Below are positions 7,432 to 54,891 of a stretch of DNA of 64,000 nt, in pieces. Position 1 is the stretch's first letter. Each line of letters opens with the position of its first letter. The notes beneath the pieces are model-generated. The model searched no databases. It saw only the letters and a list, made by a program, of their open reading frames with translations, and was not told the origin of the DNA. The stretch is from Candidatus Bathyarchaeota archaeon (GTDB taxonomy: Archaea > Thermoproteota > Bathyarchaeia > 40CM-2-53-6). The stretch is from assembly GCA_005884195.1 (NCBI GenBank), contig VBBP01000055.1, positions 15,021 through 79,020 of the forward strand, in the 5' to 3' direction. Both the position numbers and the translations under genes were made by a program.

Positions 7432-8010
7432 TTAGTCCTCCAGGAAGTTCTTGATGATCCGATGCCCTGGCACGGTAAGGATGGACTCTGGATGGAACTG
7501 AACGCCTTCGATCGGAAACTCTCTATGGCGGACGCCCATTATCTCGTTGTCATCTGTGGACTGGGCGGTCACTTCGAGGTTTTTCGGTAGGCTCTTTCCG
7601 TCGGCGACAAGAGAGTGATATCTCGTAGCCTTGAACGGGCTCTTGATTCCGCTGAGAACCCCTTTTCCATCGTGTCTGATCGGGCTGGTCTTGCCGTGGC
7701 GTGGTTTCCTTGCTCGAACTATTTTGCCGCCGAATGCATGAACAATCCCTTGGTGTCCCAGACAGACGCCCAGTGTCGGGGTCTGCCTGCTCAATTCTCG
7801 GAGGATAGCCGTGCACGTCCCGAAGTATCGCGTATTGCTGGGGGTGCCCGGACCGGGGGAGATTATGATCCTGTCAGGTGAGAGTTCCTTGACCCCTGCG
7901 ACATCTATCTCATCATTCCGTTTCACAACAACTTTGTCGGCAATCTCACCAACATACTGGGCTAGGTTGTAGACGAAGCTGTCGTAGTTGTCGATGATCA
8001 GAACCCTCAC
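7432..8010 (-). CDS. trpG: anthranilate synthase component II (glutamine amidotransferase)
   Basis: Class-I GATase triad context (GVCLGHQ ... HPES). GTG start overlaps the trpE TGA. Confidence 0.85.
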   Translation of the reverse strand: MRVLIIDNYDSFVYNLAQYVGEIADKVVVKRNDEIDVAGVKELSPDRIIISPGPGTPSNTRYFGTCTAILRELSRQTPTLGVCLGHQGIVHAFGGKIVRARKPRHGKTSPIRHDGKGVLSGIKSPFKATRYHSLVADGKSLPKNLEVTAQSTDDNEIMGVRHREFPIEGVQFHPESILTVPGHRIIKNFLED

Positions 8011-9368
8011 CGGTCTTCCTCCTGGGCCTGATCAATCGCAGTGAACAAAGCCGCTGTCTTTCTCTCGGACTCGATCCATTCCCGGTCAGGGACCGAATCA
8101 GCAACTATCCCTGCTCCGGCCTGGAGATAGCAGTACCCGTTTTGGGCGCAAAGAGTCCTGATTGTTATCGCGAAATCGCTGTTTCCGTTTGCAGAGAAGT
8201 AACCGACGGCTCCCGCGTAAGGACCCCTCGCAGTGGTTTCCAGCTCCTCGATAATCTCCATCGCACGAACTTTGGGGGCTCCCGAAACTGTGCCGGCAGG
8301 GAAGACAGCTCTTAGCAAATCGAAGCTAGTTGCACTCTTTCTCAGCTGTCCAGTGACCCTCGAAACGATGTGTTGGACATGGCTGTACCCCTGAACTCGC
8401 ATGAACTCGGGAACCTTGACAGTCCCATAATCGCAGACTCGACCGAGATCATTCCGGGATAGGTCCACGAGCATCACATGTTCCGCACGTTCTTTTTCGT
8501 CCTGAAGCAGTTCAGCCGCCAGTGCTTTGTTTCTGGCTGAATCCCCGGTGAAGGGCCGGGTTCCTGCGATGGGGAAGCTTTCCGCGTTGCGACCGATCTT
8601 CCGGGCCAGCATCTCTGGGCTGGACCCGACTATTTCCCTGTCGCCGAACTTGAGGTAGTACATGTATGGGGAGGGGTTGATTCTCTTCAGCGCCCGATAG
8701 AACCGGAGGAGCGAGCCCTTGAACGGAATCTTGTACCTCTTCGAGAGGACTACCTGAAAAATATCTCCGGATTCAATGTAGTCCTTGGCCTCGTCGACTC
8801 GCTCGCAGAAGTCTTCCTGGCTAACGTTCGATTTTGGCTTACCGAAACTAACTTGATCGCTATCAGTCGATTCCTTCAGTAGTTCCTTGGCTTTCTCTAT
8901 TCTGTTTTCTTCCCGATAGAAGTAGTACGTTCTGCTGCTGAGATGATCGAAAACAATGCCATCTTCGAAGAGTCCGAACTCCACATCAGGGAATCCGTTG
9001 CCTTTGTTTCCCAGTCTGGGAATCTTTTCAAAGGAACGTACAAGATCGTAGGACGCGTATCCGACAAGGCCGCCAGCGTATCTCTCGCCTGGACTTCGTT
9101 CTTTGACTGGGCTGTTGACACTTGCTAGAAGCGCTAGAGGGTCTTCGCACTTCTCGATCCGTCTTTCCGATCTCTGCCGATCTAAGATCTCAGCCTGTTC
9201 CTTGGAGGTACGAATCGTCTTCTGCGGGTCGAATCCTACGAAAGTGTACCTAGTTAGGCGGCGAAGTCCCTCGACTGACTCAAGAATGAAGCATGTGTCA
9301 TACTTGTCTCGGATAGTTGCGAAAATGTCTATCGGTTGTTTTCTAGTTTCTAGCGGAAGATAGTTCAG
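8007..9368 (-). CDS. trpE: anthranilate synthase component I, full length with a likely CTG start
   Basis: The ORF track truncates this to 8007..8984 (GTG). The same frame is open up to 9431 and encodes the conserved N-terminus (FILESVEGLRRLTRYTFVGFDP ... GGLVGYASYD). No ATG/GTG/TTG lies upstream of 8984. CTG at 9368-9366 gives an N-terminus of the same length as Sulfolobus TrpE. Confidence 0.82.
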   Translation of the reverse strand: MNYLPLETRKQPIDIFATIRDKYDTCFILESVEGLRRLTRYTFVGFDPQKTIRTSKEQAEILDRQRSERRIEKCEDPLALLASVNSPVKERSPGERYAGGLVGYASYDLVRSFEKIPRLGNKGNGFPDVEFGLFEDGIVFDHLSSRTYYFYREENRIEKAKELLKESTDSDQVSFGKPKSNVSQEDFCERVDEAKDYIESGDIFQVVLSKRYKIPFKGSLLRFYRALKRINPSPYMYYLKFGDREIVGSSPEMLARKIGRNAESFPIAGTRPFTGDSARNKALAAELLQDEKERAEHVMLVDLSRNDLGRVCDYGTVKVPEFMRVQGYSHVQHIVSRVTGQLRKSATSFDLLRAVFPAGTVSGAPKVRAMEIIEELETTARGPYAGAVGYFSANGNSDFAITIRTLCAQNGYCYLQAGAGIVADSVPDREWIESERKTAALFTAIDQAQEEDR

Positions 9369-9450
9369 ACTGGTGGGGCGCGTTGTGAGTTGCTGTCCAA
9401 AGACTATACCCCATGGATGTCGCCTTTGCCCTCATTCTCTCATGTCGCTT

Positions 9451-10536
9451 TTATAGCTTGCGTGTCCACTTCTGTACATTGGATGATAGTCTCTTCCTCA
9501 AGCTACTCGTTTGCTTGGATCGAGTCTGGGCAAGTGTCGTTGCAACATCGAGGAATTTCTGTCTGATAGCTGGGAGGAACGGGTTCAGCTGTTGGATTCC
9601 AACAATTGTGTCCCAATTGTCCAGCATGTTGGCAATCATGCCTTCAGTCTCTCTGAGAGACTGAGTCCTAGGCTCTCCCCCCATCCCGTCGAGGCCTATT
9701 CCGAGAGAAATCAGGGCAAAATGATGCAGCCCCTGTACATAGGCCATGGCCTTGTCATGTTGGGCAGCCGACATTGTTTGAACCCTTGCTCCGCCACCCT
9801 GCAGCGCACGGGCTAGCTTCGACCATTTCTGGCCAGCAGTGTAGGACACGGCGATGATGGTTTGATCATGAAGATGGTCTATGTTGGGTCCGAAGAGAGG
9901 GTGCAAGCTCACGTATTCCAGTCCTTTCGGGATTTTTTCCGCAATCCTATCCGATATTCCTGTCTTGACCGAGGATACATCGGTTAGAAGGCTACCTGCT
10001 GTCATAAGGGACGCGGTCTCGGTTGCGACCCTGACCGTTTCCTCCATTGGCACGGCTAGGATCACTACGTCGGACAATGCTGCGTCCAGGATTGTTCCCG
10101 GTTCGACCTCTATTTCTTTGGCCGATGTCCGGGTTTTGTTGATCTCTCTGCCCGCTAGCTTGACCTTCGCTCCTTGGAGGCTGGCGAATCTTGCGAAGAA
10201 CCGTCCCATTCCTCCGGTCCCGCCTACGATCAGGATTCTTGTCTGATCAAGTTTCTTGCTTGATTTTTCAGGGTGGTCTTGCTGCGCCTCAACGCTTAGG
10301 GCAAGAATCTGCTCGAATACTGGCCTGATGAATTTTGGGTTAATGTCGAGTGACGTGGCGGTTCGTTCTATCTTTCTGAGGATGACTTTCTCTCGCTCGG
10401 GATCGCGATAGTCGAGGCCTCTCTTCTGTTTGATTCTGCCCAGGAGCCTTGCGTTCTCGTATCTGTTCTTGAGGAGCCGAACAATCTCTTGGTCTAGCTC
10501 ATCGATCTTGTCACGAATTCTATTGACGTCGTCCAT
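9451..10536 (-). CDS. tyrA: bifunctional chorismate mutase / prephenate dehydrogenase
   Basis: N-terminal AroQ-type CM helix pattern (RIRDKIDELDQEIVRLLKNR), then a TyrA Rossmann domain (ILIVGGTGGMGRFFA). Confidence 0.75.
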   Translation of the reverse strand: MDDVNRIRDKIDELDQEIVRLLKNRYENARLLGRIKQKRGLDYRDPEREKVILRKIERTATSLDINPKFIRPVFEQILALSVEAQQDHPEKSSKKLDQTRILIVGGTGGMGRFFARFASLQGAKVKLAGREINKTRTSAKEIEVEPGTILDAALSDVVILAVPMEETVRVATETASLMTAGSLLTDVSSVKTGISDRIAEKIPKGLEYVSLHPLFGPNIDHLHDQTIIAVSYTAGQKWSKLARALQGGGARVQTMSAAQHDKAMAYVQGLHHFALISLGIGLDGMGGEPRTQSLRETEGMIANMLDNWDTIVGIQQLNPFLPAIRQKFLDVATTLAQTRSKQTSSLRKRLSSNVQKWTRKL

Positions 10537-10542
10537 GAGGGG

Positions 10543-11643
10543 TTAACTCTTTAGGACTCGTGGAATCATTCCGCCGCGGATCATCAAGTCTGCCAATCCT
10601 ATTGCGACCATTCCTTGGACTACCGGTACGGCTTTGGGGACTACGCACGGGTCGTGGCGTCCTTTGACCTCAAGTTTGGTCTCCTCCATCTGGGTCATGT
10701 TCACGGTCCTTTGCTCCTTCGCAATTGAGGAAGGCGGCTTGAAAGCGACTCTGAGCAGTAGAGGCATTCCGGTCGACATTCCCCCCAAGACCCCTCCCGA
10801 ATTATTGGTCAACGTGACAACCGTTCCCTCTTTGATCACGTATTGATCGTTGTTTTCAGATCCCTTGAGACGGGTTGCCTGGAACCCTGCTCCAAATTCG
10901 ACTCCCTTGACGGCAGGGATTCCGAAGAGTATCTTGGCGAGCTCGGAGTCGATAGCGTCGAAGAGTGGTTCGCCAACGCCCACCGGAAGGTTCAACGCGG
11001 TACACTCGACAATTCCCCCGACACTATCCCCATCATCTTTTGCGCTTAACACAACTTGGCGCATTTTCTCCGCTATGGCCTGGTTTGGGCATCTCATCGA
11101 GTTCTCATAGGTCATCTTCTTCACAGCTTCAAGGCTAGGAGCATTATCCAATTGAACTCCGTCGATGGCAAAGGTATACGCTAGGACCTCCACGCCAAAC
11201 GTAGAAAGGAGTTTTTGGGCGATCGCTCCCGCGGCTACGAATGCTGCAGTCATTCTTCCTGACAGTCTCCCTCCTCCTCGGTAGTCGCTGAACCCACCAT
11301 ACTTCACCTTCGCCGGATAATCCGAGTGTCCAGGCCGAACGAGGTCTTTGAGAGGCTCGTAATCCGATGATTTCACGTCTCTATTTTTGATATGCAACGT
11401 CATCGGCGCGCCTGTTGTATGGTCCTGGAATACTCCTGAGAATAATTCCACAACATCAGGCTCTCGTCGGGCAGAAACGACCTCTTTCTCTTGCGGAATT
11501 CTCAGGTCTAGGGACTGCTGAATGTCATAGACCCTTAGTGATAGTCCGGCGGGGCAGCCATCTACTGTGACACCTACTACCGGGCCGTGGCTTTCTCCGA
11601 AACAGGTAACCACGAACGCTTTACCGATAGAATTACTCCACAC
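10543..11643 (-). CDS. aroC: chorismate synthase
   Basis: FGESHG and RSSARET-like motifs. Confidence 0.9.
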   Translation of the reverse strand: MWSNSIGKAFVVTCFGESHGPVVGVTVDGCPAGLSLRVYDIQQSLDLRIPQEKEVVSARREPDVVELFSGVFQDHTTGAPMTLHIKNRDVKSSDYEPLKDLVRPGHSDYPAKVKYGGFSDYRGGGRLSGRMTAAFVAAGAIAQKLLSTFGVEVLAYTFAIDGVQLDNAPSLEAVKKMTYENSMRCPNQAIAEKMRQVVLSAKDDGDSVGGIVECTALNLPVGVGEPLFDAIDSELAKILFGIPAVKGVEFGAGFQATRLKGSENNDQYVIKEGTVVTLTNNSGGVLGGMSTGMPLLLRVAFKPPSSIAKEQRTVNMTQMEETKLEVKGRHDPCVVPKAVPVVQGMVAIGLADLMIRGGMIPRVLKS

Positions 11644-12907
11644 TGAGTTCTGCCCCCAATCTTGAGAGGTCCTGGAAGAATTCCGGGTAGGATTTCGAAA
11701 CAGCTTCCGAGTTCTGTACTATTGACTCTCCCTTGGCCCCAAGAGATGCGGCGGCGCACGCCATGGCGACACGATGGTCGCCGTGTGAATCGAACGCGCT
11801 TCCGACCAATTCTCTGTTTCCTTCAATCTTGATCATGTCGTTTTCAACACGAATCTTGGCGCCCATCTTCCCCAGCTCCGTTGGCAGAGTTTGTAATCGG
11901 TTCGACTCCTTGTAAACCAGCCTCTTCACCCCTCGGATCTCCGTTGACCCGTCCGCGAAACATCCTAAGATCTCCAGCGGGGGAACAAGATCCGGGTTAT
12001 TACTCGCGTCAAAATCGAACCCATCCAGCTCTCCCCTACCTATCGTCAGACTATCCCCATCCTGCTGAACCTCAAGACCGATTTCAGGAGCGACTTTCAT
12101 CATGGCAGAATCAGGCTCAAGCTCGTAGGAGCCAAGGCCAGATATGATGATCTCGGCTCCAGCAACTCCGGTCGCAGCAATGAGGAAGGCTGCTGACGAA
12201 AAGTCTCCTGGAACTTGATGAGAAGCAGGGACGAACTTTTGGGGGGCCGGAATCCTAAACGTTCCCTCAGATTCCTCGATAGAGATTCCGTGCTTCCTCA
12301 GCACGTCAATGGACACGTCAACGTACGGCCGCGATTCCAGTGAGCCCTCTACCTTTATCGTGACGTCTCTCATTGCCAGAGGGGCTGCGAAGAGGAGACC
12401 CGAGATGAACTGCGAGCTTATGTCGCCTCGAACCGTGACTTCTCCTCCTCTGAGAGGTCCCCTAATCAGTACCTCAAAGCCGTGTGTGTCGGAAAACGCC
12501 CGCGCGGAGGCACCTAGAACGTTGATTGCCTGCACAAGCGGATCCAACGGCCTGTTGGCAAGTCTCGGGCTGCACGTTAGCCTAACTGTTCTTAGAGAAG
12601 TAGACGCGATCGCGGTCAGGAACCTGAGGGTGGCTCCGGACTCACCGCAGTCAAAGGGTCTGTTAGTAGGTGTCGGTCTCGTGACCCCGTAGGAAATTGT
12701 CCGGGTTTTCTTGACAACCACGTTCGCTCCTAACCGTTGCATCCCTTGAAGTGTTCGCTGGGTATCATCACAGTGCAGTGCTCCATCGATAACCGATTTT
12801 CCCTCTGACAACAGAGAGGCGAGGAGTGCTCTGTGGGTGTACGCCTTGGATCCGGGAGCCTTTACTTTCCCGTGCAGCGCTTGGGGACCCTTGATCCTGG
12901 CTCTCAG
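11633..12907 (-). CDS. aroA: 3-phosphoshikimate 1-carboxyvinyltransferase (EPSP synthase), likely CTG start
   Basis: The track starts at TTG 12811, but the conserved KAPGSKAYTHRALLASL motif is encoded upstream in the same frame with no ATG/GTG/TTG. CTG at 12907-12905 overlaps the aroK stop (CTGA) and aligns with the MLLVIKP... start of homologues. Confidence 0.82.
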   Translation of the reverse strand: MRARIKGPQALHGKVKAPGSKAYTHRALLASLLSEGKSVIDGALHCDDTQRTLQGMQRLGANVVVKKTRTISYGVTRPTPTNRPFDCGESGATLRFLTAIASTSLRTVRLTCSPRLANRPLDPLVQAINVLGASARAFSDTHGFEVLIRGPLRGGEVTVRGDISSQFISGLLFAAPLAMRDVTIKVEGSLESRPYVDVSIDVLRKHGISIEESEGTFRIPAPQKFVPASHQVPGDFSSAAFLIAATGVAGAEIIISGLGSYELEPDSAMMKVAPEIGLEVQQDGDSLTIGRGELDGFDFDASNNPDLVPPLEILGCFADGSTEIRGVKRLVYKESNRLQTLPTELGKMGAKIRVENDMIKIEGNRELVGSAFDSHGDHRVAMACAAASLGAKGESIVQNSEAVSKSYPEFFQDLSRLGAELSVE

Positions 12908-14612: not shown

Positions 14613-14618
14613 GTGTTG

Positions 14619-17133: not shown

Positions 17134-17142
17134 TGTATTTGA

Positions 17143-22322: not shown

Positions 22323-22718
22323 TTGACGGATCCCGCTGAGGAACAGCGAATGCTAGAAGAGAAAGTGGGCAAGGCCTTGGACGAGGCGAGAGCCAAGCTC
22401 GACACGGCGCTGGGCAGTCTCTCCAAGGGTGGGGCGGAATCGGAGAAGAAAGTCTGGTGGGCCGAGGAAGCAGCCGAATACAGCAGTCTGCTCTACTCCC
22501 TCACCTATGGTCTCGAGGACGAGGACCCTCCTGTTCCGGTGAGGAAAAGGAACGCCGAGCCCATCCCGCTGGTCAAGGAATCTTCGGAATCGCTACGTCA
22601 CGCGACAGAGCTTCGCGGCAAGTCTTCCTTGGAAGGATACCGTAATCTCCGGACTGCAGTCTACAAGCTGAGGCAAGCACACCACATTCTCGAAAAAGCT
22701 GGTTCGAAGAAGCGCTAG
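22323..22718 (+). CDS. hypothetical protein
   Basis: ORF only; helical, charged. Confidence 0.35.
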   Translation: MTDPAEEQRMLEEKVGKALDEARAKLDTALGSLSKGGAESEKKVWWAEEAAEYSSLLYSLTYGLEDEDPPVPVRKRNAEPIPLVKESSESLRHATELRGKSSLEGYRNLRTAVYKLRQAHHILEKAGSKKR

Positions 22719-27847: not shown

Positions 27848-28159
27848 CTAGTTTCCTGCTCGTAGCTTGTCCGCAATCCGGGCGGCCAATCCTGCATCTT
27901 TCACCTTCACGGATAGCTGGCCATTCATGACGGTTAGTTGATCACCGCTTACAGAGGCAACAATCGGCTCTGCGCTGTCGTTCGTCGCCGGGGTTTTCGG
28001 CTGCTCTGCTGGAATGGGAATCTTGCCCATGAGGGCCGTGGCGCCGGCCGCTACCGCAGCGGCTCCTACGCCGAATTTCAAGAAGTCTCTTCGGGATATC
28101 TTGTTTCTTGAGTCCTGTTCGGACTCGGCTTTCTCGTCAGTCTTCTTATTCTCTTTCAA
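27848..28159 (-). CDS. small secreted protein with a twin-arginine (Tat) signal peptide
   Basis: SRRDFLKFGVGAAAVAAGATALMG fits the Tat consensus plus a hydrophobic region. Likely TTG start at 28159 (the track extends to 28273). Ends at TAG, 3 nt before the DUF4331 ATG and in the same frame. Confidence 0.6.
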   Translation of the reverse strand: MKENKKTDEKAESEQDSRNKISRRDFLKFGVGAAAVAAGATALMGKIPIPAEQPKTPATNDSAEPIVASVSGDQLTVMNGQLSVKVKDAGLAARIADKLRAGN

Positions 28160-28402
28160 GGATTTCTGGCTGACATGGCTTGGATTGATTCTTAACGGTT
28201 TTTCCAAATTTCCCCGGAATCTGGCCCATATTCTACCTGGAGATAGCCGGAGAGGGCTACTCGCAATAGTCAATATCGCCGCAGATGTCTATCGCGAATC
28301 TAATCTCTAAGAACTCTCGCGAAAGGTCTGAGCTAGTGCGGAGTGAATTTCCGAGCGATTTGAGCTTGCGTTTGGAGAATGGGTGCGAGGAGTAGTTCTG
28401 CC

Positions 28403-28716: not shown

Positions 28717-29142
28717 CTACTCCGGATTTGTTTTGTTTATCTTTCTTCTTCCAATTCTAGTCCAAATCTCGTCGAGGATCGGAAGCGCTTCTTCCATCTT
28801 AGAAGTAAGAAAGAGAACGGCACCATACGTTCCTTTTTCCGATGGAACGATTAGGCCATTCTCTTCTAGAACCCTAACGTGGTGTTGGATGGTTTTGTAG
28901 TCGACACCGAGAATTTGCGCAAGTTGATTAGCGTTGCAAGGACGGTTCTGGAGAGCCTTGATGATCTCAGCCCTGCTGGGTCCTCCACGTGTTCCAGCGA
29001 ACAGGTACCATAAGAGTCGTTTGAGATACTTCTCGCCATAGAGCGACGCCTTGGAGTCTTCCTTTGCCGTGGTGAGTAGAAATGGAATTCTGCGAATGAT
29101 TTGGCCAAGTTCAGGACGCAGTTGTGACTTTACAGTTATCAG
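28717..29142 (-). CDS. ArsR/SmtB-family winged-helix transcriptional regulator (missed by the ORF track)
   Basis: Hand translation of the minus strand gives ...PSRAEIIKALQNRPCNANQLAQILGVDYKTIQHHVRVLEENGLIV... No in-frame ATG/GTG/TTG near the N-terminus; CTG candidates at 29142 and 29121. The track's 28866..29108 ORF in another frame looks spurious. Confidence 0.6.
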   Translation of the reverse strand: MITVKSQLRPELGQIIRRIPFLLTTAKEDSKASLYGEKYLKRLLWYLFAGTRGGPSRAEIIKALQNRPCNANQLAQILGVDYKTIQHHVRVLEENGLIVPSEKGTYGAVLFLTSKMEEALPILDEIWTRIGRRKINKTNPE

Positions 29143-29303
29143 GCTGGATCATCTAGAGGATTGGTCGTCCGTTCGAATTATCTGGTTGGTCCCGTTATAA
29201 TATTTCTGCGACTCTGTCAAGACTTCGAGACTGGTCACGATAATTTCCTTTTTGGCTATCGGGAGGGTCAGGGTTGGTGTGAAATCTTAGAGGAATTGGG
29301 ATT

Positions 29304-29467: not shown

Positions 29468-30358
29468 TCAGATTCTCGCCTTTCCGCAACGGCCGCAGAA
29501 CACGCCACCTGGGTCCATGTCTCCCCCGCAGAAGCTACAGGCTGTCTCCAGAGGCACGGGCTCCACTTCGTCTTCTACACGTTCCTTTTCGTATCTCTTT
29601 GCATACCAGATTGCTCCTTCAAGCAGTATGATGATTGGAACAAACAATGCAACGTCTGCCAAGGGTCCGCCGTCGGGGGAAGCTATGGCAGTCAGAACTA
29701 GGAGTGATGCCCAGACGTACTTCCGATTCTTGGTAAGCATCTTCGTCCCGAGAACGTGCAATTTGACGAGTAGAACGAAGAAGACGGGAATTGTGAAGGC
29801 AAAGCCTGAGAGTACGATGACGAAGAAAACGAGGTTGTAGAACTGGTCGGCGAAAATGAAGGTGGATATTCCTACTGCTTGGAAGAAGGGGATAGAGAAG
29901 TAGAATATGAATGGCAAGAGAACGAAAAAGGCAAACGAAGCGCCTCCCATGAACAGGATCGAAAACGCTGCGACGAACGGGTATACCGACTGTTTCTCGT
30001 TGGCCTTGATTGCTGGGTCCACAAATTTGTATATCTCATAAGCGAGCACGGGGATACTTGTAGCGAATCCGAACACTGCGGATCCTACGACGATGAGCTC
30101 TAGGGGTGTGGTGACGGTTCCTCCGATCAATATGTACTGTGACGGCAGCAGTCGCGTCCTTATCGTGCCGAGAATCGCTGTTATTAGTGGATGGTAGACT
30201 TGGAAGGGATTTTGCAAGAACGAAAGGTCAGACGGGACAACAAGATAGAACAGGGTCGCAATGGCGAAGGAATAGATCCAGATTTTTATTCGTCTTGAAA
30301 GCTCTGAAATGTGGTCCCAAAGAGGTAGAACTTTTTCCCGCGATTGTTCTTCTGACAG
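29468..30358 (-). CDS. tatC: twin-arginine translocase subunit TatC with a C-terminal zinc ribbon, likely CTG start
   Basis: TatC helices (TTPLELIVVGSAVFGF ... YKFVDPAIKANEK). The conserved N-terminal region (PLWDHISELSRRI...) is encoded upstream of the track start with no ATG/GTG/TTG. CTG at 30358-30356 gives MSEEQSREKVLPLWDHISELSRRI, which aligns with E. coli [20 protein letters not shown]. C-terminal CxxC...CxxC (CSFCGG...CGRCG). Confidence 0.8.
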   Translation of the reverse strand: MSEEQSREKVLPLWDHISELSRRIKIWIYSFAIATLFYLVVPSDLSFLQNPFQVYHPLITAILGTIRTRLLPSQYILIGGTVTTPLELIVVGSAVFGFATSIPVLAYEIYKFVDPAIKANEKQSVYPFVAAFSILFMGGASFAFFVLLPFIFYFSIPFFQAVGISTFIFADQFYNLVFFVIVLSGFAFTIPVFFVLLVKLHVLGTKMLTKNRKYVWASLLVLTAIASPDGGPLADVALFVPIIILLEGAIWYAKRYEKERVEDEVEPVPLETACSFCGGDMDPGGVFCGRCGKARI

Positions 30359-30474: not shown

Positions 30475-30762
30475 CTACTTTGTCTGAGCTGCTCTTACGA
30501 TCTCGTCAGATATCTCTTGACGCGTCTTGCCTTGAGTGTTAATCCCCAATTTGTGCGCTGTATCAGTTAGAGGATCAGACGTGGACAGAGCTGGCTGAGA
30601 GGGTGAGAGTGGGTTTGTTAGTCCTTTTGAGGCGTCGTCGAATTCTTTGCGTGCCCTTCCTATTGATCTCGCTAGTTCCGGTATTTTTTGTGGTCCCCAG
30701 ATCAGTATGACGGCTAGTACGCCCAGTATCAGTAGGATCTGGAACGGGTCTCCTAGAGCCAT
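30475..30762 (-). CDS. tatA: twin-arginine translocase subunit TatA
   Basis: MALGDPFQILLILGVLAVILIWGPQKIPELARSIGRARKEF. The ATG at 30762 is taken over the track's longer TTG form. Confidence 0.8.
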   Translation of the reverse strand: MALGDPFQILLILGVLAVILIWGPQKIPELARSIGRARKEFDDASKGLTNPLSPSQPALSTSDPLTDTAHKLGINTQGKTRQEISDEIVRAAQTK

Positions 30763-30889: not shown

Positions 30890-31639
30890 CTGAAAGTAGT
30901 CGTGTGCGTGCGGCGCGTTCCGGACACAGCAACGCGCATCAAGATTGCACTTGATGGGAAATCAATTGTCACAAGCGATGCAGAGTTTGTAATCAATCCT
31001 TACGAAGAGTACGCTCTAGAACAGGGTGTTCAGCTAAAGGAGAAACACGGTGGAGAGGTCACTGTTCTCACCCTCGGACCCGAGAAGTCAACTAGCGTAA
31101 TTCTCAAAGCGCTAGCCCTTGGTGCGGACAAGGCGATTCATCTCAAGAGCGAAAATTTTCCAGATGACTCAAGCGCCGTTGCCCGGGCCATCGCTGCGGA
31201 ATTGAAATCAGTCGAATTCGACGTTCTCTTGTTTGGCAAGAAGGGTGTTGACGACGACAGCCAGCAAGTCGGGCAAATGGTAGCCGAACTTCTCGGGATT
31301 CCCTGCTCCACTCAAATCGTCAAACTCGACATCTCCGGTGGCAAGGCGATCGCTCATCGAGAAGTTGAAGGAGGAGTAATCGTTGTCGAGACTACCCTTC
31401 CGTCCGCATTCACCGCGGAAAAAGACTTGACCGTTCCTCGGTACGCGTCGCTAAGAGAATTAGTCGCTGCAAGGAAGAAACCTATTCTCGTGAAGGAGCC
31501 TCAACTGTTTCCGGGCATTCTGGAAATTGTCTCAATTCAATATCCTCCACCTAGACCTCCAGGCAGGGTACTAGGGAAGGGCGTTGAAGCGGTTCCAATA
31601 CTGGTCAAGGTTCTGCACGAAGAGGCCAAGGTGATCTAG
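30890..31639 (+). CDS. etfB: electron transfer flavoprotein beta subunit (FixA-like), likely CTG start
   Basis: The track starts at GTG 30902 (MCVRRVPDT). The CTG four codons upstream, right after a TAA, gives MKVVVCVRRVPDT, which matches the canonical MKIVVCVKQVPDT. Confidence 0.82.
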   Translation: MKVVVCVRRVPDTATRIKIALDGKSIVTSDAEFVINPYEEYALEQGVQLKEKHGGEVTVLTLGPEKSTSVILKALALGADKAIHLKSENFPDDSSAVARAIAAELKSVEFDVLLFGKKGVDDDSQQVGQMVAELLGIPCSTQIVKLDISGGKAIAHREVEGGVIVVETTLPSAFTAEKDLTVPRYASLRELVAARKKPILVKEPQLFPGILEIVSIQYPPPRPPGRVLGKGVEAVPILVKVLHEEAKVI

Positions 31640-36419: not shown

Positions 36420-36567
36420 TTGGATCGTGCTTGATCAACTCCTGAAGAAACGATGCTCTGTCGCGGTTCTAAGAGTAGGATCGGCGTGTCTCGGAAATAA
36501 GTCTGCCCAAAAGTGGGGTGTCCATATGGGACTAGCGTTGTGCCTGCTGCAGTCTCTCAGTGTGGGG

Positions 36568-42035: not shown

Positions 42036-42740
42036 ATCTCGAAGATATTCCTTGATACTGCCAATGTGTCTTCGATCAAAACCTTCGCCGATATGGGAGT
42101 GCTTGACGGCATCACCACCAATCCAACGCTCATCGCGAAGGAGAACAGAGAATTTCTTGAGCTTGTATCTGAAATTCTTCAGATCGTACAGGGTCCAGTA
42201 AACCTTGAGGTCGTAAGCCAGAACACTGAGGGAATGTTACAAGAGGCTCACAACCTTGCATCGCTAAGCCCGAACGTTGTCGTCAAGTGTCCGATGACGA
42301 GTGCGGGCATGGTAGCAGTCAAGACGCTCAGCAAAGAAGGAATCAACACGAACGTCACCCTCGTCTTCTCGCCCAATCAAGCCCTACTAGCTGCAAAAGC
42401 AGGAGCTACCTACGTTAGCCCGTTCATAGGCCGCTTGGACGATGCGGGACATGAGGGAATGAAGGTGATTGAGGATACGTTGCGGATTTATCGAAATTAC
42501 GAGATCGAAACCCAGGTACTAGTGGCCAGTATCCGCCACCCTGTCCACGTGGTCGATGCCGCAAAGCTAGGAGCTCATGTGGCGACAATGCCACCTGATG
42601 TACTTGAAAAGATGGTTAAGCATCCATTAACTGACATTGGCCTCAAGCGGTTTCTTGACGATTGGCAGAAGGCAGGTTTGAAACTTCCTGAACGCGGAAC
42701 TCTTGCGGCCAAGGCAAGACCTCTGGTTCAACGCGCATAA
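42036..42740 (+). CDS. tal: transaldolase (MipB/FSA type), start unresolved (ATC?)
   Basis: The track starts at 42066 (GTG, VSSIKTF). The conserved N-terminus KIFLDTAN is encoded upstream in the same frame, directly after the tktC TGA, with no ATG/GTG/TTG. ATC at 42036 would give MSKIFLDTAN. Confidence 0.8.
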   Translation: MSKIFLDTANVSSIKTFADMGVLDGITTNPTLIAKENREFLELVSEILQIVQGPVNLEVVSQNTEGMLQEAHNLASLSPNVVVKCPMTSAGMVAVKTLSKEGINTNVTLVFSPNQALLAAKAGATYVSPFIGRLDDAGHEGMKVIEDTLRIYRNYEIETQVLVASIRHPVHVVDAAKLGAHVATMPPDVLEKMVKHPLTDIGLKRFLDDWQKAGLKLPERGTLAAKARPLVQRA

Positions 42741-49331: not shown

Positions 49332-49399
49332 TCTGAATGGTCCCGGAGTTCGGGGCGGAGATAAGGATATTGACCGAGAATCGATGGTGCTTTGAGAAA

Positions 49400-49693
49400 T
49401 TATGGTTTCTTGGTGCCCTCGATTCTTTCCTTGCCCACGACGAGGATGAAGATGAGTATTCCGAGGGCGAAGGATGTGAGGCTAATCGACATGGAGACTG
49501 TGATGTCGAGGTTGAGTCGGTGGAACAGCTCGTAGTTCAGATACGCCGGAAGGATCATGAGTGCGCCCGCGATTACGACGATTACGCCTCTTAGAATGTC
49601 GTGTATTTCCGTGCCCGCTATCGTTGTCTTTGTGCCCGTTGGTAACTCACCCGCTACTGATGTATTCCAGAAATGGCCCCGTATATAGATGAT
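49400..49693 (-). CDS. possible small 2-TM membrane protein with no canonical start (low confidence)
   Basis: Open frame directly after, and in frame with, the trmI TGA. Encodes two hydrophobic helices. The only ATG/GTG/TTG is deep inside the ORF; ATC ATC follow the stop. Confidence 0.3.
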   Translation of the reverse strand: MIYIRGHFWNTSVAGELPTGTKTTIAGTEIHDILRGVIVVIAGALMILPAYLNYELFHRLNLDITVSMSISLTSFALGILIFILVVGKERIEGTKKP

Positions 49694-50476
49694 TCACACG
49701 TCAGATGCTGGAAGAAGCTTCCGCGCGATCGTCACGTACGCAGTGTGTCCTATCATCCTAGTCTCCGGTCTAACCTTGCCAGCCTCTGTTTTGAACTCCC
49801 TAATGAGAAGTTCGACAGCCTCTAAGATCATGAATCCTCCTTCGCGGAGCGCTACTGCAAGCTTCTCCAGCTGGTTTATTGTCGGAGTAAACCCTGCCAG
49901 CAGTCCCCCTCCAAGCAGCGCTCTCCATGCAGCTCCAACCATCCTCCAAGGATCGCCAAGATCAACAACAACCGCGTCAACACTCGTCTCCTCAAATCCC
50001 TCTGTTGGGTCCTTGTTGTGAAAAGTCACCAGGGAGCCAAACCCTGCTTTCTCCACGTTCGCCTTCGCCGCTCGTAAGAACTCCTGCCTCATCTCATACG
50101 TGAACACTTGGCCGTCCGGAGCGATCCCCCTGGCTAGGGCGGAGGTTAGAGCTCCGCTTCCGGTTCCAACCTCTACCACTCTATCCCCGTTCCCGATTCC
50201 TAGCTGGAAGAGTGCGTATCCGATATCCTTCGGATAGAGAATCTGGGTGGGACGATCAAACGATTCGACAATGTCGAGCGCTCGTGGCTTGAACACTGCA
50301 AGGTTCTGGCCCATGCTCGTACGGATGGACCCGCCGTACTCCTTCCCTACCAATTCTGCGAGCTCGAAGTAGCCTCGGTGAGTGTGAAATCTTCCCGGCT
50401 CCACCTTTGCAATCCACTTGCGCCGGACGTCTTGGTACAACAAGACCCGGTCTCCCAGCTTAATCTCTCGGCTCAA
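49694..50476 (-). CDS. trmI: tRNA (adenine-N1)-methyltransferase TrmI
   Basis: VVEVGTGSGALT SAM motif and a Gcd14-like N-terminal domain. Confidence 0.8.
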   Translation of the reverse strand: MSREIKLGDRVLLYQDVRRKWIAKVEPGRFHTHRGYFELAELVGKEYGGSIRTSMGQNLAVFKPRALDIVESFDRPTQILYPKDIGYALFQLGIGNGDRVVEVGTGSGALTSALARGIAPDGQVFTYEMRQEFLRAAKANVEKAGFGSLVTFHNKDPTEGFEETSVDAVVVDLGDPWRMVGAAWRALLGGGLLAGFTPTINQLEKLAVALREGGFMILEAVELLIREFKTEAGKVRPETRMIGHTAYVTIARKLLPASDV

Positions 50477-50649
50477 GGCAACGGACGGTTCCGAAACCGA
50501 GAGCCATTAAGCATTCTATTTCAATCACGACCTGACACAGATAGAGTCTCTTCCACAAAGGGGCGGCTCCTTCTGTAACTTTCTCCTACCGTGATCTTCC
50601 TTTTCCCTAACTTTTCCAAGAACAAAACATTCCATCTTCCAACCTTTCT

Positions 50650-50752
50650 TTTCGTTGTAACTTTTCTTTTTTCGCGTAACTATTTTTTCTGCTAACTAAA
50701 ATGCGACCCCCGGATGGTCTTTTTCACGCGCCGCGCCCTTCGTGAAAATGGC
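50650..50752 (+). repeat. conserved intergenic element, copy B
   Basis: Paralogue of 20330..20432. Here it lies between the trmI start and the stop of the upstream minus-strand gene, so it is not upstream of any + strand gene. Confidence 0.45.
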
Positions 50753-50756
50753 CAAT

Positions 50757-51272
50757 CTAGCCTTTCAGAGCCTTGAACACGCTCTCAGCCTTCGAGGCAG
50801 GAACAAGCTTCACGGTGATAGGCTCCTTGGTCCCCGAGATTCCTATCCTCAGCACTGCTACCCTCCTCCTCCACCAAGTGGCAAGGACAGCAGCCAAGAA
50901 CACAGCGAACGTGCCGATTAGTAACAGGTCGAAGGGCGCTTGAGGCAGGCTAAGCTTCGCCTGGCCCGGAAACCACCATACAAGAAAGACGGCTATCGCG
51001 CCTAGGACAGCATAGGTCAAAGGCGGGATCAGGCTCTTGGTTATCAGCTCCAGCATACTTACCTCGGCATGTGGAACGTTCACGTATTTTTCCCCAATAG
51101 CAAACCTCTTCCCAACCAGCAATCTCGAGTCCGTCACGTAGACCGTATAGTTCACGCCTGCGCACTCAGCTAGAATATTCTCTGCCCCGACCAGGTTCCT
51201 GAGGTTGCTCAAATCCTGCTGTTGAGACACGAAAATCTCTCTTACCCGTATTGTAACCAGTCCCCGGGGCAA
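50757..51272 (-). CDS. hypothetical membrane protein
   Basis: Soluble N-terminal domain plus 2 TM helices. Confidence 0.45.
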   Translation of the reverse strand: MPRGLVTIRVREIFVSQQQDLSNLRNLVGAENILAECAGVNYTVYVTDSRLLVGKRFAIGEKYVNVPHAEVSMLELITKSLIPPLTYAVLGAIAVFLVWWFPGQAKLSLPQAPFDLLLIGTFAVFLAAVLATWWRRRVAVLRIGISGTKEPITVKLVPASKAESVFKALKG

Positions 51273-51289
51273 AAGGATTACGAACAGCC

Positions 51290-52477
51290 CTACTTGGCCG
51301 CTACCAGCTGGGAAACAGCCTCGACTACCGCTCGAATCCCATTCTCCGAACCCAGCGTTCCGCTGAGTCTTCGTGCATTCTCTCGCATATTCTCTAGAGA
51401 TGTCGAGATGGCTCCACCCAGCTCTTTCGAGTCCAGTCTAGATTGATCTAGAACGACAGCTACTCCTAGTTCCTCCGCCCGCTTCGCATTATTCGCCTGT
51501 TCCGTATGGTTCGGTGGGGGAATCAGCACAAGTGGCTTCCCTTCAGAGATCGCCTTCATAATCGTCTCATGTCCCGCCCTGGAGACAATTACGTCTGCGC
51601 GCTCGAAGGTCTTCCGATAGGACTGCTCGGTCATCCACTCGTGAACCATGAGATTCCCGATCCTCTTTTCACCAAACGATCCATTCGGATCGCCGCAACT
51701 GAGAATCAGTTCGTAGTCTCCGGGAAACTCCTTGAGGATATCGGTCAACTTGTTCACAAGATACCTCCGGTCTGTCGCAGGACCACTAACACACGCAAAG
51801 ACTAGAGGCCTAACAGTGCCAGCATGTTGGATACCGTTTGGAATATTGAGCCTTGACGGCGTTAATGGCCCCACTAGCCGGACCTTCCTCCTGATCCCAG
51901 GGGGAATCGCGAGATTGTATCTCGAAATCGTGTAAGGGGCCTTGAGGTCTGGAACAATGATAAGATCGCTTATGCCCCAAGCCAGCTCTAACATTGCGGA
52001 AATATATCTCCAGATGATCTTCGCGGCGAAAAGCATTGGCCTATCAGCCAACCTGTGTTTGGTGTCGTCCTTGGGCATCTGGACAGAATACTGGTTGAGG
52101 ATCAGGATCCTCGGTTTTCTCAGAATGAACGCGGCAACTAGAGTAGAGATTCTGGTGTCCGATATTACGACATCAGGTTCGAACGCGGAGATCTGCCGCA
52201 CCTCGCCGATCAGCTGGCGTATGAAACCCCACAATCCCACAGTCACACCGTTCTGGCTCATTGTCATCTTCGGGTCAATCGTCCCATCCTCCCTGGTTCG
52301 GAATGACAAGGGAATCGCGCTGAAGTAGGTGAAACCAGAACGCTTCAAATAATCCAAAGCGTCAAGATAGGACGAGAACAAAACATCCACGCCCTCGCTC
52401 GAGAACTCTCGGGCGATCGCATCGCACCGGCTAATGTGCCCAAGGCCTAGCCCGCAAGGCGCAATATACAGTCTCAA
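51290..52477 (-). CDS. glycosyltransferase, GT1/GT28 (MGT/UDP-glycosyltransferase-like)
   Basis: GLGHISRC N-terminus and a C-terminal nucleotide-sugar-binding region (SRAGHETIMKAI ... GKPLVLIP). Confidence 0.7.
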   Translation of the reverse strand: MRLYIAPCGLGLGHISRCDAIAREFSSEGVDVLFSSYLDALDYLKRSGFTYFSAIPLSFRTREDGTIDPKMTMSQNGVTVGLWGFIRQLIGEVRQISAFEPDVVISDTRISTLVAAFILRKPRILILNQYSVQMPKDDTKHRLADRPMLFAAKIIWRYISAMLELAWGISDLIIVPDLKAPYTISRYNLAIPPGIRRKVRLVGPLTPSRLNIPNGIQHAGTVRPLVFACVSGPATDRRYLVNKLTDILKEFPGDYELILSCGDPNGSFGEKRIGNLMVHEWMTEQSYRKTFERADVIVSRAGHETIMKAISEGKPLVLIPPPNHTEQANNAKRAEELGVAVVLDQSRLDSKELGGAISTSLENMRENARRLSGTLGSENGIRAVVEAVSQLVAAK

Positions 52478-52487
52478 CCCTTAGGTC

Positions 52488-53108
52488 CTAGCCCCTCAAC
52501 TTCCTCTCGAACACTCTTCCTCCTGGAGCTTCCTCTGAAAAGATCTGCCCTTGGAATCGAGCAACCTTCACACTACCAGTCACCCAGGCATCGGGCATCA
52601 ACCCAGCCTTCAAACAACACTCGTTGAGAAACTCCTCCTCATCAAAGCCCTCGTCTACTGCAACCTGTGGCAGCAGAAGCCCTTGGGTTCCAAACCCGTC
52701 TACAAATAACCCGTCCCGCCCAACTTTAATGTTCAAGGGCAGATCCAGCGGGCTCTTGAGCAAGATATGCTCGAGCGGGGAGAGCACCGTCACCTCCACG
52801 ATAATGCTCCCTAGGAACTCATCCTTTCGCACCGGTGCAAATCTCGGATCCACTGCAGCGGCGTCAACCGCACAACGCACCGTCTCGTTGAGCAGCGACA
52901 TCCTAGGGAACGGGTTGCCAATACAACCTCGCAGCCTTCGACTCCTTGCTATGTCAAATAGTGTGACGAACACTCCCAGCGTAGCGCGTAATTCCGAACC
53001 TACGTTTGCCACTGGGTCGAGGTTTTCTCCATCCAAATGGTGGACTATTGCTTGCCGTGCGGTACCGACGAGTTTTGTCCCGTTTTCCGTTGATACCAAG
53101 CTAGTCAC
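52488..53108 (-). CDS. AMMECR1-domain protein (AmmeMemoRadiSam system protein A family)
   Basis: LRGCIG motif. GTG start overlapping the upstream TGA (GTGA); the longer track ORF overlaps the Mut7-C gene. Confidence 0.72.
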   Translation of the reverse strand: MTSLVSTENGTKLVGTARQAIVHHLDGENLDPVANVGSELRATLGVFVTLFDIARSRRLRGCIGNPFPRMSLLNETVRCAVDAAAVDPRFAPVRKDEFLGSIIVEVTVLSPLEHILLKSPLDLPLNIKVGRDGLFVDGFGTQGLLLPQVAVDEGFDEEEFLNECCLKAGLMPDAWVTGSVKVARFQGQIFSEEAPGGRVFERKLRG

Positions 53109-53590
53109 TCTTCCAAGCTCGCGCGCTTCTTTGCCTCTTCTAGAGTCTGACGAATGCGGTTCCAGTGGCTTCCGAGCCAATACATTTTTCCGCAATTCTG
53201 ATTGGTGCATTTCCAGAATTGGTCGTACAGTTTTAGGCTTGCTTTGGGGACCTCATGTGCAACTTCACTCTTTGGCGTTTCCTGTAGGCCGGACCCACAT
53301 TCTGGACACTTTGTCTCGGCCATGTTGACGTTCAAGGATACGCCGAACGTGGTAGCAAGCTGAGCTAATCTCTCCTCCTCGGTTTCGCCGAGCACGAGAG
53401 CAGACAGTATCTTCCTAGCTATCGCTCTTTGGTATAATTCTTCATCTCTTGTTAGTAAGACCATATTATCTTCGTGGGCGATTCTTAGGAGCTCGTTGTC
53501 CCTCGTACTTGCGTCATATCTTACATCTTGGCCTAGAATCCGTAACCACCTTGCCAGTCTGCCCAGCATTCCGTCGACGAGAAACCTCAT
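53105..53590 (-). CDS. Mut7-C RNase-domain (PIN-like) protein with a C-terminal zinc ribbon
   Basis: MRFLVDGMLGRLARWLRILG N-terminus and CPECG ... CTNQNCG. Confidence 0.75.
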   Translation of the reverse strand: MRFLVDGMLGRLARWLRILGQDVRYDASTRDNELLRIAHEDNMVLLTRDEELYQRAIARKILSALVLGETEEERLAQLATTFGVSLNVNMAETKCPECGSGLQETPKSEVAHEVPKASLKLYDQFWKCTNQNCGKMYWLGSHWNRIRQTLEEAKKRASLEE

Positions 53591-54891
53591 CCGCGGCTTC
53601 CATTTCTCAGCACCTTGCCGCCGCCTGGTTTTCCAGTGATCTCACCGTTGCTGTAGACAACTGACCCGTTTACGATTGTGGTATGGACGGCACCTTGTGT
53701 CTTCCATCCCTCGAACGGAGAGTAATGCGCTTTGGAGAAGAACTTGTCAGGGTCAATCTTTCCTTTCTCTTTCAGATCCACTAGAATCATATCGCCATTG
53801 GCTCCTTCCCGTAGTTTTCCCTTCGAGCTGAGACCGAAGATCTTCGCGGGGTTGGTTGAGAGGAGAGCGACTAGTCGGCCGAGCGATAATTTTCTCTTGT
53901 TGACCATGGTCAGCATCAATGGCGTAGCCGTTTCTAGGCCAGGTATTCCAGGTGGGCTCTTTTGAGGTGGTCGCCGCTTCTCTTTGATAGTGTGCGGTGC
54001 GTGATCCGTGGCAATGATCGTTGCTTTGCCAGTTGACATTTCCCGAAACAAGCGGTTCCTTACTTGCCGAGGTCTGAGCGGAGGCACCATCCAAGCCTTC
54101 CAACCGAGCTTTTCAACGGAATCGTCGGAGAGTAGGATGTGATGTGGGGTCACTTCCGAAGATAATTCGCTCGAATGCCAATTCCCAATTGAAGAGATGC
54201 TAGATGGGAGGGTAACATGGCAGAAGTGAACGCGACAACCAATCTGCTTCTGAAGTCTAAGGATCCTGCTGACGGCGCTTGTCTCGGCCTTTCCGAGTCG
54301 TGATCCGACAAGTTCATTGAAGGTCCGAATCTCTCTGGTGGGTTCAATCTGGGCTGCGTCTTCTGCATGAACTGTGACTGGAAGCGAGGCTTCCTTCGCG
54401 GCCTTCAAGACTTCGACAATTGTGAGGTCATCGCCTAAGTCTAAGGGGGCGATAGGCTTAGGGAGGTAGAGTTTTATCGAGAAAGCTCCGGCCATTTTCA
54501 TCGTTTCCACCGCGGCTCGATTTGCAACTGCGGCCGCGTGAAAGCCTGTGTTCACGAGGATATTTCCGGAGGCTCTCCTGGCCTTCTCCCGAAGACGCTG
54601 AGCTGAGTCAGTAGGTGGCAGGGTATTCGGCATGTCTAAAACAGTGGTAAACCCTCCGGCTGCTGCGGCAGAGGTTCCACTTGTGAAATCCTCTTTGTAC
54701 GCTAGCCTCAGGTCGCGTAAGTGGACATGCGCATCAACTAGCCCAGGTAATGCCACTAATCGTTCGGCTAGAATCTCCTCGTCGGCTTGTGCGGCTATCC
54801 TTCGAGCTATTCTCTGAATCCTTCCATCCTCGATGAGGATTGAACCTCTGATGGCACGATTCTCAGTCCAGATATGAGCGTCTCGAATCAG
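53587..54891 (-). CDS. pyrC: dihydroorotase (cyclic amidohydrolase), likely CTG start
   Basis: DAHVHLRD metal-binding motif. The track ORF runs to 55020 and would overlap the CBS gene by about 100 nt. There is no ATG/GTG/TTG near the expected N-terminus; CTG at 54891 gives MIRDAHIWTENRAIRGSILIEDGRI. Confidence 0.7.
   Translation of the reverse strand: MIRDAHIWTENRAIRGSILIEDGRIQRIARRIAAQADEEILAERLVALPGLVDAHVHLRDLRLAYKEDFTSGTSAAAAGGFTTVLDMPNTLPPTDSAQRLREKARRASGNILVNTGFHAAAVANRAAVETMKMAGAFSIKLYLPKPIAPLDLGDDLTIVEVLKAAKEASLPVTVHAEDAAQIEPTREIRTFNELVGSRLGKAETSAVSRILRLQKQIGCRVHFCHVTLPSSISSIGNWHSSELSSEVTPHHILLSDDSVEKLGWKAWMVPPLRPRQVRNRLFREMSTGKATIIATDHAPHTIKEKRRPPQKSPPGIPGLETATPLMLTMVNKRKLSLGRLVALLSTNPAKIFGLSSKGKLREGANGDMILVDLKEKGKIDPDKFFSKAHYSPFEGWKTQGAVHTTIVNGSVVYSNGEITGKPGGGKVLRNGSRG

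Follow-up and report, generated by a model that had tools for sequence, protein, structure and literature searches.

In Escherichia coli the gene for release factor 2, prfB, is expressed by a programmed +1 frameshift at the sequence AGGGGG UAU CUU UGA C. Near-cognate start codons are known as well: CUG and ACG serve in eukaryotes, AUU in the bacterial infC gene, and translation table 11 lists CTG, ATT, ATC and ATA as rare starts, while in plant organelles ACG start codons are edited to AUG. "Hungry-codon" +1 shifts have been described at CUU AGG C in yeast Ty1 and at rare UGG_A sites in glass-sponge mitochondria, and the review of Atkins et al. (2016) reports no known example of such frameshifting that yields a starvation-specific product (PMC5009743). 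Here we analyze a stretch of 64,000 nucleotides from a Candidatus Bathyarchaeota archaeon (assembly GCA_005884195.1, contig VBBP01000055.1, positions 15,021 to 79,020 of the forward strand; ~52% G+C), termed the window throughout, in which trpE, aroA, tatC, an ArsR-like regulator gene and the transaldolase gene have no ATG, GTG or TTG codon before their conserved domains. We consider it probable that two separate phenomena are combined here, namely labile start codons that have undergone U-to-C changes in a number of genes, and a different situation in trpE, which is most likely expressed by a +1 frameshift behind a short leader open reading frame (ORF). The trpE leader appears to us the most interesting element of the finding.

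A first-pass annotation, made from the letters of the window alone, had attributed such genes, roughly 8 of 70, to initiation at CUG and possibly AUC. For each of these claims, orthologous loci were collected from related genomes and metagenome contigs, their 5' ends were aligned, and the codon in the proposed start column was read. The relatives, recruited by scanning the TrpE protein against one genome per GTDB species, are soil Bathyarchaeia metagenome-assembled genomes (MAGs) with TrpE identity of 74-94%; individual loci or contigs compared with the window carry L-numbers (e.g. L005, L083). Within the window, stop-to-stop ORFs and Pfam profile coordinates were compared with the first in-frame ATG/GTG/TTG, the codon positions of first canonical starts being counted from 0. 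The codons named by the first-pass annotation are all present at its positions, and the absence of a canonical start before the conserved domain was borne out for the five genes listed above. A tRNA scan of the whole window found no tRNA genes, an Rfam scan of it gave no matches, and literature searches on archaeal trpE frameshifting or recoding and on CUG starts in archaea or Bathyarchaeota returned nothing relevant.

The trpE gene lies on the reverse strand in a stop-to-stop ORF at 8007..9431, with the Pfam domain Anth_synt_I_N beginning at ORF residue 32. The first canonical codon, GTG at 8984, is 128 codons past the CTG at 9366..9368 that had been proposed as the start, so the anticipated truncation by 128 codons is real. 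The CTG itself does not hold as a start: in an alignment of 31 sequences (the window and 30 related loci) this column contains CTA 12, CTG 10, CTC 6, TTA 1 and TTG 1 times, and in one locus elsewhere it is ATA. Because the variation is synonymous, we regard this CTG as an ordinary internal Leu codon in a frame read from further upstream. The chain in the Sulfolobus solfataricus TrpE structure (1QDL) begins at about the same Leu column, so that whatever precedes it in Bathyarchaeia appears to be an add-on outside the enzyme fold.

What precedes it is a T/Q/P-rich linker and, overlapping the 5' end of trpE, a short leader ORF in the -1 frame relative to trpE (9343..9414, reverse strand; ATG GGG TAT AGT CTT TGG ... 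TAG, MGYSLWTATHNAPHQSELSSARN*). Its general form is ATG GGG nAT nnn nTT TGG and its product is M-G-[Y/N]-x-[L/I]-W-..., with a stop 10-27 codons later, inside trpE. The motif ATG[G/A]GG is found 5' of the Leu column in 31 of 31 related Bathyarchaeia loci with a readable upstream region as well as in the window, and although the linker comes in nine different lengths, the leader ATG stands at 1 mod 3 from trpE in all of them. The leader was also found in Nitrososphaeria-like and DPANN loci, and the consensus of 41 distinct sequences that include these genomes is ATGGGGnATnGnCTTTGG. The motif scan overlooked L047, whose leader was seen in a separate reading of the locus. Wherever the motif could be located the leader starts with ATG, except for TTG in L034 and L170, and it is preceded at 8-10 nucleotides by a Shine-Dalgarno (SD)-like AAGG or GGAG, a spacing that fits the leader ATG and not the AUA, AUU or AUC (AUH) found 7 nucleotides further 3'.

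Among 11 species of the window's clade the 19-nucleotide core of the leader shows 0 variable sites, compared with 14 of 27 in the linker that follows it. By trpE-frame codon position the variable sites of the linker number 2, 4 and 8, and those of the first 20 trpE codons, in a like distribution, 6, 7 and 13; since the linker varies mainly at third positions, the trpE frame is read from directly after TTTGG. The nTT TGG element, and with it TTTGG, is invariant in the 41 distinct sequences, with TTT never replaced by TTC, unlike the conserved Phe columns of TrpE, 11 of 12 of which mix TTT and TTC. The last T of this TTT is the first base of the leader TGG.

In 25 of 32 sequences (the window and the 31 loci) no ATG/GTG/TTG occurs in frame until 25-235 codons into trpE. 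The trpE frame is moreover closed at the leader ATG itself in several loci, by TAA TGG in L011, L024 and L164, by ATGA in L030 and L047, and by TAA or TGA also in L170; in the window it is open from 7 codons before the one with which the leader ATG overlaps. The most telling variant comes from a sister clade of three species in four assemblies (L032, L169, L171 and L172), in which the leader reads ATG (AAA) GGT GAT TTA GTT TGG and the trpE frame accordingly GTG ATT TAG TTT GGn, with TAG directly 5' of TTT. In L032, L171 and L172 no canonical start precedes the conserved N-terminal helix of TrpE. Owing to this TAG and the lack of a canonical start, ribosomes of the sister clade can enter the trpE frame only at or after GUU_UGG, which excludes initiation at AUH there as well as a shift directly behind the AUG. 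The arrangement agrees with a P-site tRNA that slips from nUU to UUU while UGG waits in the A site.

We propose that the shift takes place at CTT_TGG_A (9396..9402, reverse strand), which comprises the Leu codon and the Trp codon of the leader and the first base of the codon that follows. The leader AUG is the only SD-served start for trpE, one base out of frame; a ribosome on the leader would pause while UGG, the codon for Trp, occupies its A site, the peptidyl-tRNA-Leu would slip from CUU to UUU, and reading would resume at GGA (9398-9396), the first codon of the +1 frame, to continue through the linker and the enzyme to the stop (trpE frame 8007..9398). Low Trp-tRNA would thereby switch on Trp synthesis. 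The anatomy of the leader is an observation, whereas the slippage and its dependence on tryptophan are what we infer from it. That a tryptophan-sensing +1 frameshift at nUU_UGG of a six-codon leader turns on the trp operon across Bathyarchaeia and related archaea is a proposal on which we are evenly divided; if true, it would provide the first case of a natural hungry-codon frameshift in control of an amino-acid pathway.

The closest parallel is prfB. In both loci a short frame-0 ORF carries a start codon and the main ORF, in the +1 frame, has none, both have a P-site CUU able to re-pair as UUU, in both the speed of A-site decoding would report the level of the pathway's product, and in both a G-rich block ends 3 nucleotides before the shift codon (GGGGnAU-nnn-CUU in trpE, GGUGAU-nnn-GUU in the sister clade). 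Four features of a prfB-type site are found here (a frame-0 ORF with start and SD, a slippery nUU_U, a +1 main ORF lacking a start, and a +1 frame closed 5' of the shift site), with the exception that TrpE lineages beginning MFG or VFG do have a start of their own. Unlike in prfB, the A-site codon is the sense codon UGG and not a stop, so that the sensor would be Trp-tRNA and not a release factor, and the gene behind it is the first of the Trp pathway; the trpE case is also archaeal, would shift at codon 6, has an in-frame start in some lineages, and is known here from sequence alone. Ty1 and the sponge mitochondrial sites are alike in the slip of tRNA-Leu from CUU to UUx next to a slow A-site codon, and the sponge sites share the tetranucleotide U_GGA, but they depend on constitutively rare tRNAs and do not serve to sense and regulate an amino-acid pathway. 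With trpL and TnaC the locus has in common a short upstream ORF with Trp codon(s) before the trp genes, translated to sense tryptophan. It differs from them in that the leader has a single Trp codon, overlaps trpE in a fixed frame relation and precedes a gene without its own start codon, and that no terminator or antiterminator hairpins and no excess structure were found in the trpE leader (the fold is no better than that of shuffled sequences, z = +1.38); the single Trp codon, the lack of a terminator-like site and this z-score give no support to classical attenuation of the trpL type.

Several observations weigh against the frameshift at the Trp codon. Most substitutions in the core leave the amino acids of the trpE frame unchanged (G-I-[VA]-F-G), and many other Bathyarchaeia begin TrpE in frame within or before the motif (MFG.., VFG.., or MxxWGIAFG.., e.g. 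MNKWGIAFG..); such starts inside the motif imply that it may be translated in the trpE frame, which would favor a shift right after the AUG or a start at AUA, either of which may apply in the window's own clade. L163 is a lineage with an in-frame start that keeps the leader (MGYDVWL*). The G-rich block matches the anti-SD sequence well only in the sister clade, the sole carrier of a perfect GGUGAU. In a relative (GCA_038733455.1) the NCBI Prokaryotic Genome Annotation Pipeline (PGAP) annotates ATT as the trpE start. Finally, L165 (ERZ25039519 contig_26900) is the only trpE locus with the leader ATG in frame, and its called protein begins MGNRLWHTNNNRNQQPANPLKIKK..; this may reflect an indel error in the linker, which is rich in A and C, or a natural fusion in which no shift is needed.

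An explanation that dispenses with frameshifting, and that we regard as unlikely, is that trpE starts at the near-cognate AUA at 9407-9405 (AUU or AUC in relatives), 7 nucleotides 3' of the leader AUG, the leader being a competing or regulatory upstream ORF. It would agree with the ATT chosen by PGAP, with the use of other near-cognate starts in the clade, with a translated G-I-[VA]-F-G, and with the ATG found in this column in L163, L037 and L047. On the other hand, the column is never ATG in the 31 Bathyarchaeia loci read, nor in the window, the next codon in that frame is TAG in L032, L169, L171 and L172, and the SD sequence would lie 15-17 nucleotides from AUH. An AUA start also leaves the strict TTT and the retained leader Trp codon unexplained, and a ribosome stalled at UGG would cover AUH, giving the wrong regulatory sign.

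A distinctly improbable variant places the +1 shift at the very start, such that after the AUG a Gly-tRNA reads GGU or GGA (bases 5-7) and not GGG (bases 4-6), giving M-G-I-V-F-G. Codon 2 is Gly in both frames, AUGGGG is conserved, L030 has AUGAGG (a rare Arg codon in frame 0, Gly in +1), and the G-I-x-F-G motif of the trpE frame appears constrained. However, the TAG 5' of TTT excludes such a shift in the sister clade, the leaders of DPANN begin AUG GAA or AUG ACU and thus have no run of G, yet carry the nAT-nnn-nTT-TGG block at the fixed distance, and a shift at the AUG has no tie to tryptophan. Two further routes into trpE were considered and rejected. Read-through from the gene upstream is contradicted by the chorismate mutase/prephenate dehydrogenase gene, which ends with TAA (9453-9451) in the leader frame, and by the various or double stops that precede the leader motif in relatives; a shift at the stop codon of the leader is contradicted by the linker and the first trpE codons, which already evolve in the trpE frame.

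The surroundings of the trpE leader show additional features. At 9446-9457 on the reverse strand, 41 nucleotides 5' of the leader ATG, a TATAAAAG motif overlaps the stop codon that ends the chorismate mutase/prephenate dehydrogenase gene; the trp genes may have an internal promoter here. In the window, and only there, a further in-frame ATG (9436) would make the leader longer. In L036, L037, L040, L043, L047, L163-L166, L169 and L171, half-palindromes similar to TGTACA (GTATAC, GTGCA, GTACA) lie 60-110 nucleotides 5' of the leader, where they flank BRE/TATA promoter elements (AAAGGTTTAAATA, AAGCTTAAATA). They resemble the TRP boxes bound by TrpY in Methanothermobacter, and if they were such boxes, transcriptional control would come on top of the leader. 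Public annotation of trpE varies: PGAP uses the ATT start in L164 (the same assembly GCA_038733455.1), and other callers shorten TrpE to 'MAEFGDYCYLLES' (P0122/L171), with loss of the N-terminal helix. The start column of trpG (8010, reverse strand) contains TTG 9, GTG 7, CTG 2 and ATG 1 times in relatives; the occurrence of all four NTG codons implies that the first base of the start codon changes freely in the clade.

Apart from trpE, CTG was found at the orthologous start column in four of the genes for which it had been proposed, namely etfB, tatC, aroA and the ArsR-like gene. The strongest case is etfB (30890..31639, forward strand; CTG at 30890..30892), in which CTG is codon 1 in 47 of 47 related loci (41 distinct coding sequences, amino-acid identity down to 71%), and an in-frame stop lies 1-2 codons before it in most of them. 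EtfB has 15 fully conserved Leu columns, 14 of which use 2-6 synonymous codons each, and the CTG start column is the only one with a single codon. In distant relatives the column contains ATG or GTG, after GGAGG. The window alone does not compel a non-canonical start for etfB, as GTG occurs 4 and 6 codons downstream of the CTG, but 9 of 31 distinct sequences have no ATG/GTG/TTG for 25-104 codons past it. The invariant column together with these nine sequences indicates that the CTG is selected as such, as expected of a start codon. A conserved out-of-frame start or mini-upstream ORF 5' of etfB was rejected as a general feature, having been seen on inspection by eye in a few lineages only.

The remaining three genes exhibit a different pattern of conservation. 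In tatC (29468..30358, reverse strand; CTG at 30356..30358) the TatC profile matches from ORF residue 18 onward, and no canonical codon appears before ORF codon 50. The start column of distinct relatives has TTG 13, ATG 2 (L103, L108) and CTG 1 times, CTG being present only in the window, L083 and L084, as the product of a TTG-to-CTG change in the window lineage. In aroA (11633..12907, reverse strand; CTG at 12905..12907) the EPSP profile runs from residue 16 and the first canonical codon, TTG 12811, is ORF codon 42; the start codon overlaps the stop of the GHMP-type shikimate kinase gene, as TTGA in 9 of 11 relatives and as CTGA in the window and L005. In the ArsR-like gene (28717..29142, reverse strand, in a stop-to-stop ORF at 28717..29148; CTG at 29140..29142) the HTH_5 domain occupies residues 55-98, the first ATG/GTG/TTG is ORF codon 117, and the start column of distinct relatives contains TTG 16, GTG 1 and CTG 1 times (the latter in L084). 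The CTG codons recur in independent assemblies, those of tatC and etfB in L083 and L084, that of the ArsR-like gene in L084 and that of aroA in L005. Based on these distributions the CUG start of etfB appears to be ancient and fixed, and the other three recent.

Two genes carry TCG at the start column. For transaldolase (tal; gene end 42740, forward strand) the first-pass annotation had seen only ATC and ATA candidates. There is indeed no canonical start before the profile, which begins at residue 5 (the first canonical codon, GTG 42066, is ORF codon 11), but the ancestral start is the codon next to the ATC: the region reads ATC TCG (42036..42041), and the column of TCG 42039-42041 is TTG in L129, L089, L160, L120, L127 and L136, ATG in L131 and L145, and TCG in the window, L097, L128 and L115. 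An SD sequence, AGGTGA, overlaps the stop of the transketolase gene (tkt) two codons upstream, with the spacing TGA-n6-TCG. The question for this gene is therefore one of UCG, AUC, AUA or re-initiation, rather than of AUC alone. The second case, gatE (1201..3105, forward strand), lies outside the region covered by the first-pass annotation and was not part of it. Its first codon, TCG at 1201..1203, stands directly after and in frame with the TAG stop of gatD, in the context GGAGG-n5-TAG TCG TCG GTA GAC (window region 1141-1215). The first canonical codon, TTG 1477, is ORF codon 92, position 2 of the GatB_N profile already aligns with ORF residue 11, and N-termini of the family have the form M-x-I-D-Y. 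The window and six GTDB species representatives have TCG as the first codon, and L167 and L168 have TTG in the same column; TCG is retained in 7 of 7 sequences, whereas the next Ser codon varies, in what is a small sample.

ACG was found at 22326..22328 (forward strand), where 9-12 relatives have ATG and where the adjacent TTG at 22323 may be the start, and at 36426..36428 (reverse strand), in a column that contains ATG 8, ACG 5 and TTG 2 times in relatives, with GTG 36419 located 3 codons downstream. Both ACG cases are thus genes that also hold a canonical codon next door. A third position, 37947, is ACG in the window, on a tentatively assigned coding strand, and ATG in most relatives; Pfam gave no match there.

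We compiled a census of 41 start columns from the window and distinct relatives. It comprises ATG 239, TTG 199, GTG 56, CTG 37, TCG 10, ACG 8, GCG 1 and ATT 1, while the third-position variants ATA, TTA and GTA are all 0; the remainder (AAT 8, TAG 2, CTA 2, CTT 1) was read as likely misalignments. CTG is thus a repeated minority, as had been expected, but so are TCG and ACG, and GCG occurs once. Start codons seem to change easily in this clade of soil Bathyarchaeia, with TTG nearly as common as ATG, and a minority of conserved genes, all of them intact, appear to have a U-to-C variant in the column where orthologous genes start, mostly CUG or UCG and in a few cases ACG. It is suggestive that the tolerated variants correspond to U-to-C at codon positions 1 and 2. 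The first-pass estimate of about 8 genes in 70 comes close in number, with 7 clear cases among about 43 checkable genes, not all of which are CUG. Overall the earlier observation is partly to largely confirmed and extends to gatE. As an interpretation, CUG initiation holds for four genes, foremost etfB, is mistaken in the case of trpE and pyrC, and does not reach far enough for transaldolase and gatE.

As to mechanism, we consider it most likely that the ordinary initiator tRNA initiates at the variant codons, with the ribosome placed by the SD sequence or by termination of the upstream gene (CTGA in aroA, TAG-TCG in gatE, TGA-n6-TCG in tal), and that a pyrimidine mismatch would be accepted at codon positions 1 and 2 (NYG) and none at position 3, the decoding step being our reading of the codon pattern. 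SD or coupling context is clear for gatE (GGAGG), tal (AGGTGA) and aroA (the CTGA overlap), etfB and tatC have weak matches of the AGG type, and for the ArsR-like gene none is obvious. As in known near-cognate initiation, CUG and ACG occur at orthologous start positions, in part with a clear SD or coupling context. Unlike there, such starts are far commoner here (CUG in about 4 of the roughly 43 genes checked), the CUG of etfB has long been fixed, UCG and GCG, neither of them a near-cognate of AUG, are also present, and third-position variants are absent. Three points speak against this interpretation: UCG is two positions off AUG and we know of no initiator tRNA that reads it, the U-to-C excess rests on about a dozen independent events, and 22 of 31 etfB sequences carry a GTG 4-6 codons downstream as a possible alternative start.

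There is a small chance that gatE and transaldolase are made by read-through of the in-frame stop upstream, TAG of gatD and TGA of tkt, as GatD-GatE and Tkt-Tal fusions. In all members of the TCG subclades the two genes are in frame with their upstream neighbors, 0 and 2 codons past the stop. Against this, relatives with a TTG start share the identical layout (L167 TAG TTG; L127 TGA CCG ATT TTG), so that the in-frame arrangement is older than the loss of TTG; TAG and TGA are ordinary stops for other genes of the window, no read-through signal was found (Rfam gave no match), and GatD and GatE are needed 1:1.

To C-to-U editing of the mRNA, which would restore canonical starts (CUG and UCG to UUG, ACG to AUG, GCG to GUG) and make C in the genome cost-free, we give a very slim chance. 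Each odd codon of the start columns, including UCG and GCG, which near-cognacy to AUG does not cover, is one C-to-U step from a canonical start, third-position variants are absent from the census, and UCG is kept in the essential gatE across seven species. The situation resembles start-codon editing in plant organelles in having a genomic C where reading it as U gives a canonical start, and is unlike it in being known here from DNA alone. Conversely, the contexts of the sites share no common motif, and the etfB CTG is never TTG in 41 sequences, a constancy not to be expected if C and T were interchangeable there. Moreover, T-to-C transitions are common mutations in any case, and to our knowledge no C-to-U editing of mRNA has been found in archaea. 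Sequencing or assembly errors, which the first-pass annotation had itself raised in the form of base-calling errors, or pseudogenes are hardly credible as the source of the odd codons: the source is a metagenome assembly, and the trpE contig L165 and some long-read MAGs have likely indels, but the same codons recur in independent assemblies and different species (tal in L097, L115 and L128; gatE in six species), the N-terminal regions are conserved at the protein level with synonymous variation, and gatE, aroA, tatC and trpE are intact at full length.

In pyrC (53587..54942, reverse strand) the CTG at 54889-54891 that had been proposed as the start is internal. Relatives with 61-93% identity are mostly called as 452 amino acids, and their conserved N-terminal extension begins (L/M)DNLKSP in the column occupied by TTG 54940..54942, which is the true start; the CTG encodes the Leu of a conserved 'SLLIRD', and the window offers GTG 55020, ATG 55017 and TTG 54942 upstream of it. 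TatA was rejected as a further non-canonical case, as it has a conserved ATG at 30762. An ORF at 27848..28288 (reverse strand), with ATA at an ATG column, was not counted, its 5' reading frame being ambiguous among relatives. Region 28190-28290 on the same strand has two candidate frames, one of which reads (A/G)TG GGy CAG/TAG ATT CCG GGG (MG[Q/*]IPGRFGKTVK) and is interrupted by TAG in L086, L104 and L109, and in the other an ATA of the window stands opposite ATG in some relatives. Finally, 3' of trmI (~49400-49690, reverse strand) there is an open frame for a hydrophobic, membrane-like peptide (..GVIVVIAGALMILPAYLNYELF..SFALGILIFILVVGKER..) with no ATG/GTG/TTG before an internal Met; in public assemblies an 85-amino-acid ORF is called on the opposite strand.

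As the first-pass annotation had foreseen, gene callers limited to ATG/GTG/TTG truncate or miss such genes, here gatE, trpE, aroA, tatC, etfB, the ArsR regulator and transaldolase, in archaea that are abundant in soil, and truncated calls distort metabolic reconstructions. Public annotations are affected already, as illustrated by a TrpE that is 128 codons short here, by 'MAEFGDY..' in P0122 and by the ATT start of PGAP. A fixed CUG start and a UCG at the start of the essential gatE in seven species bear on how start codons are selected by archaeal, eukaryote-like initiation factors. The trpE leader, for its part, makes starvation-induced frameshifting testable as a regulatory device and provides a short, portable candidate sensor sequence.

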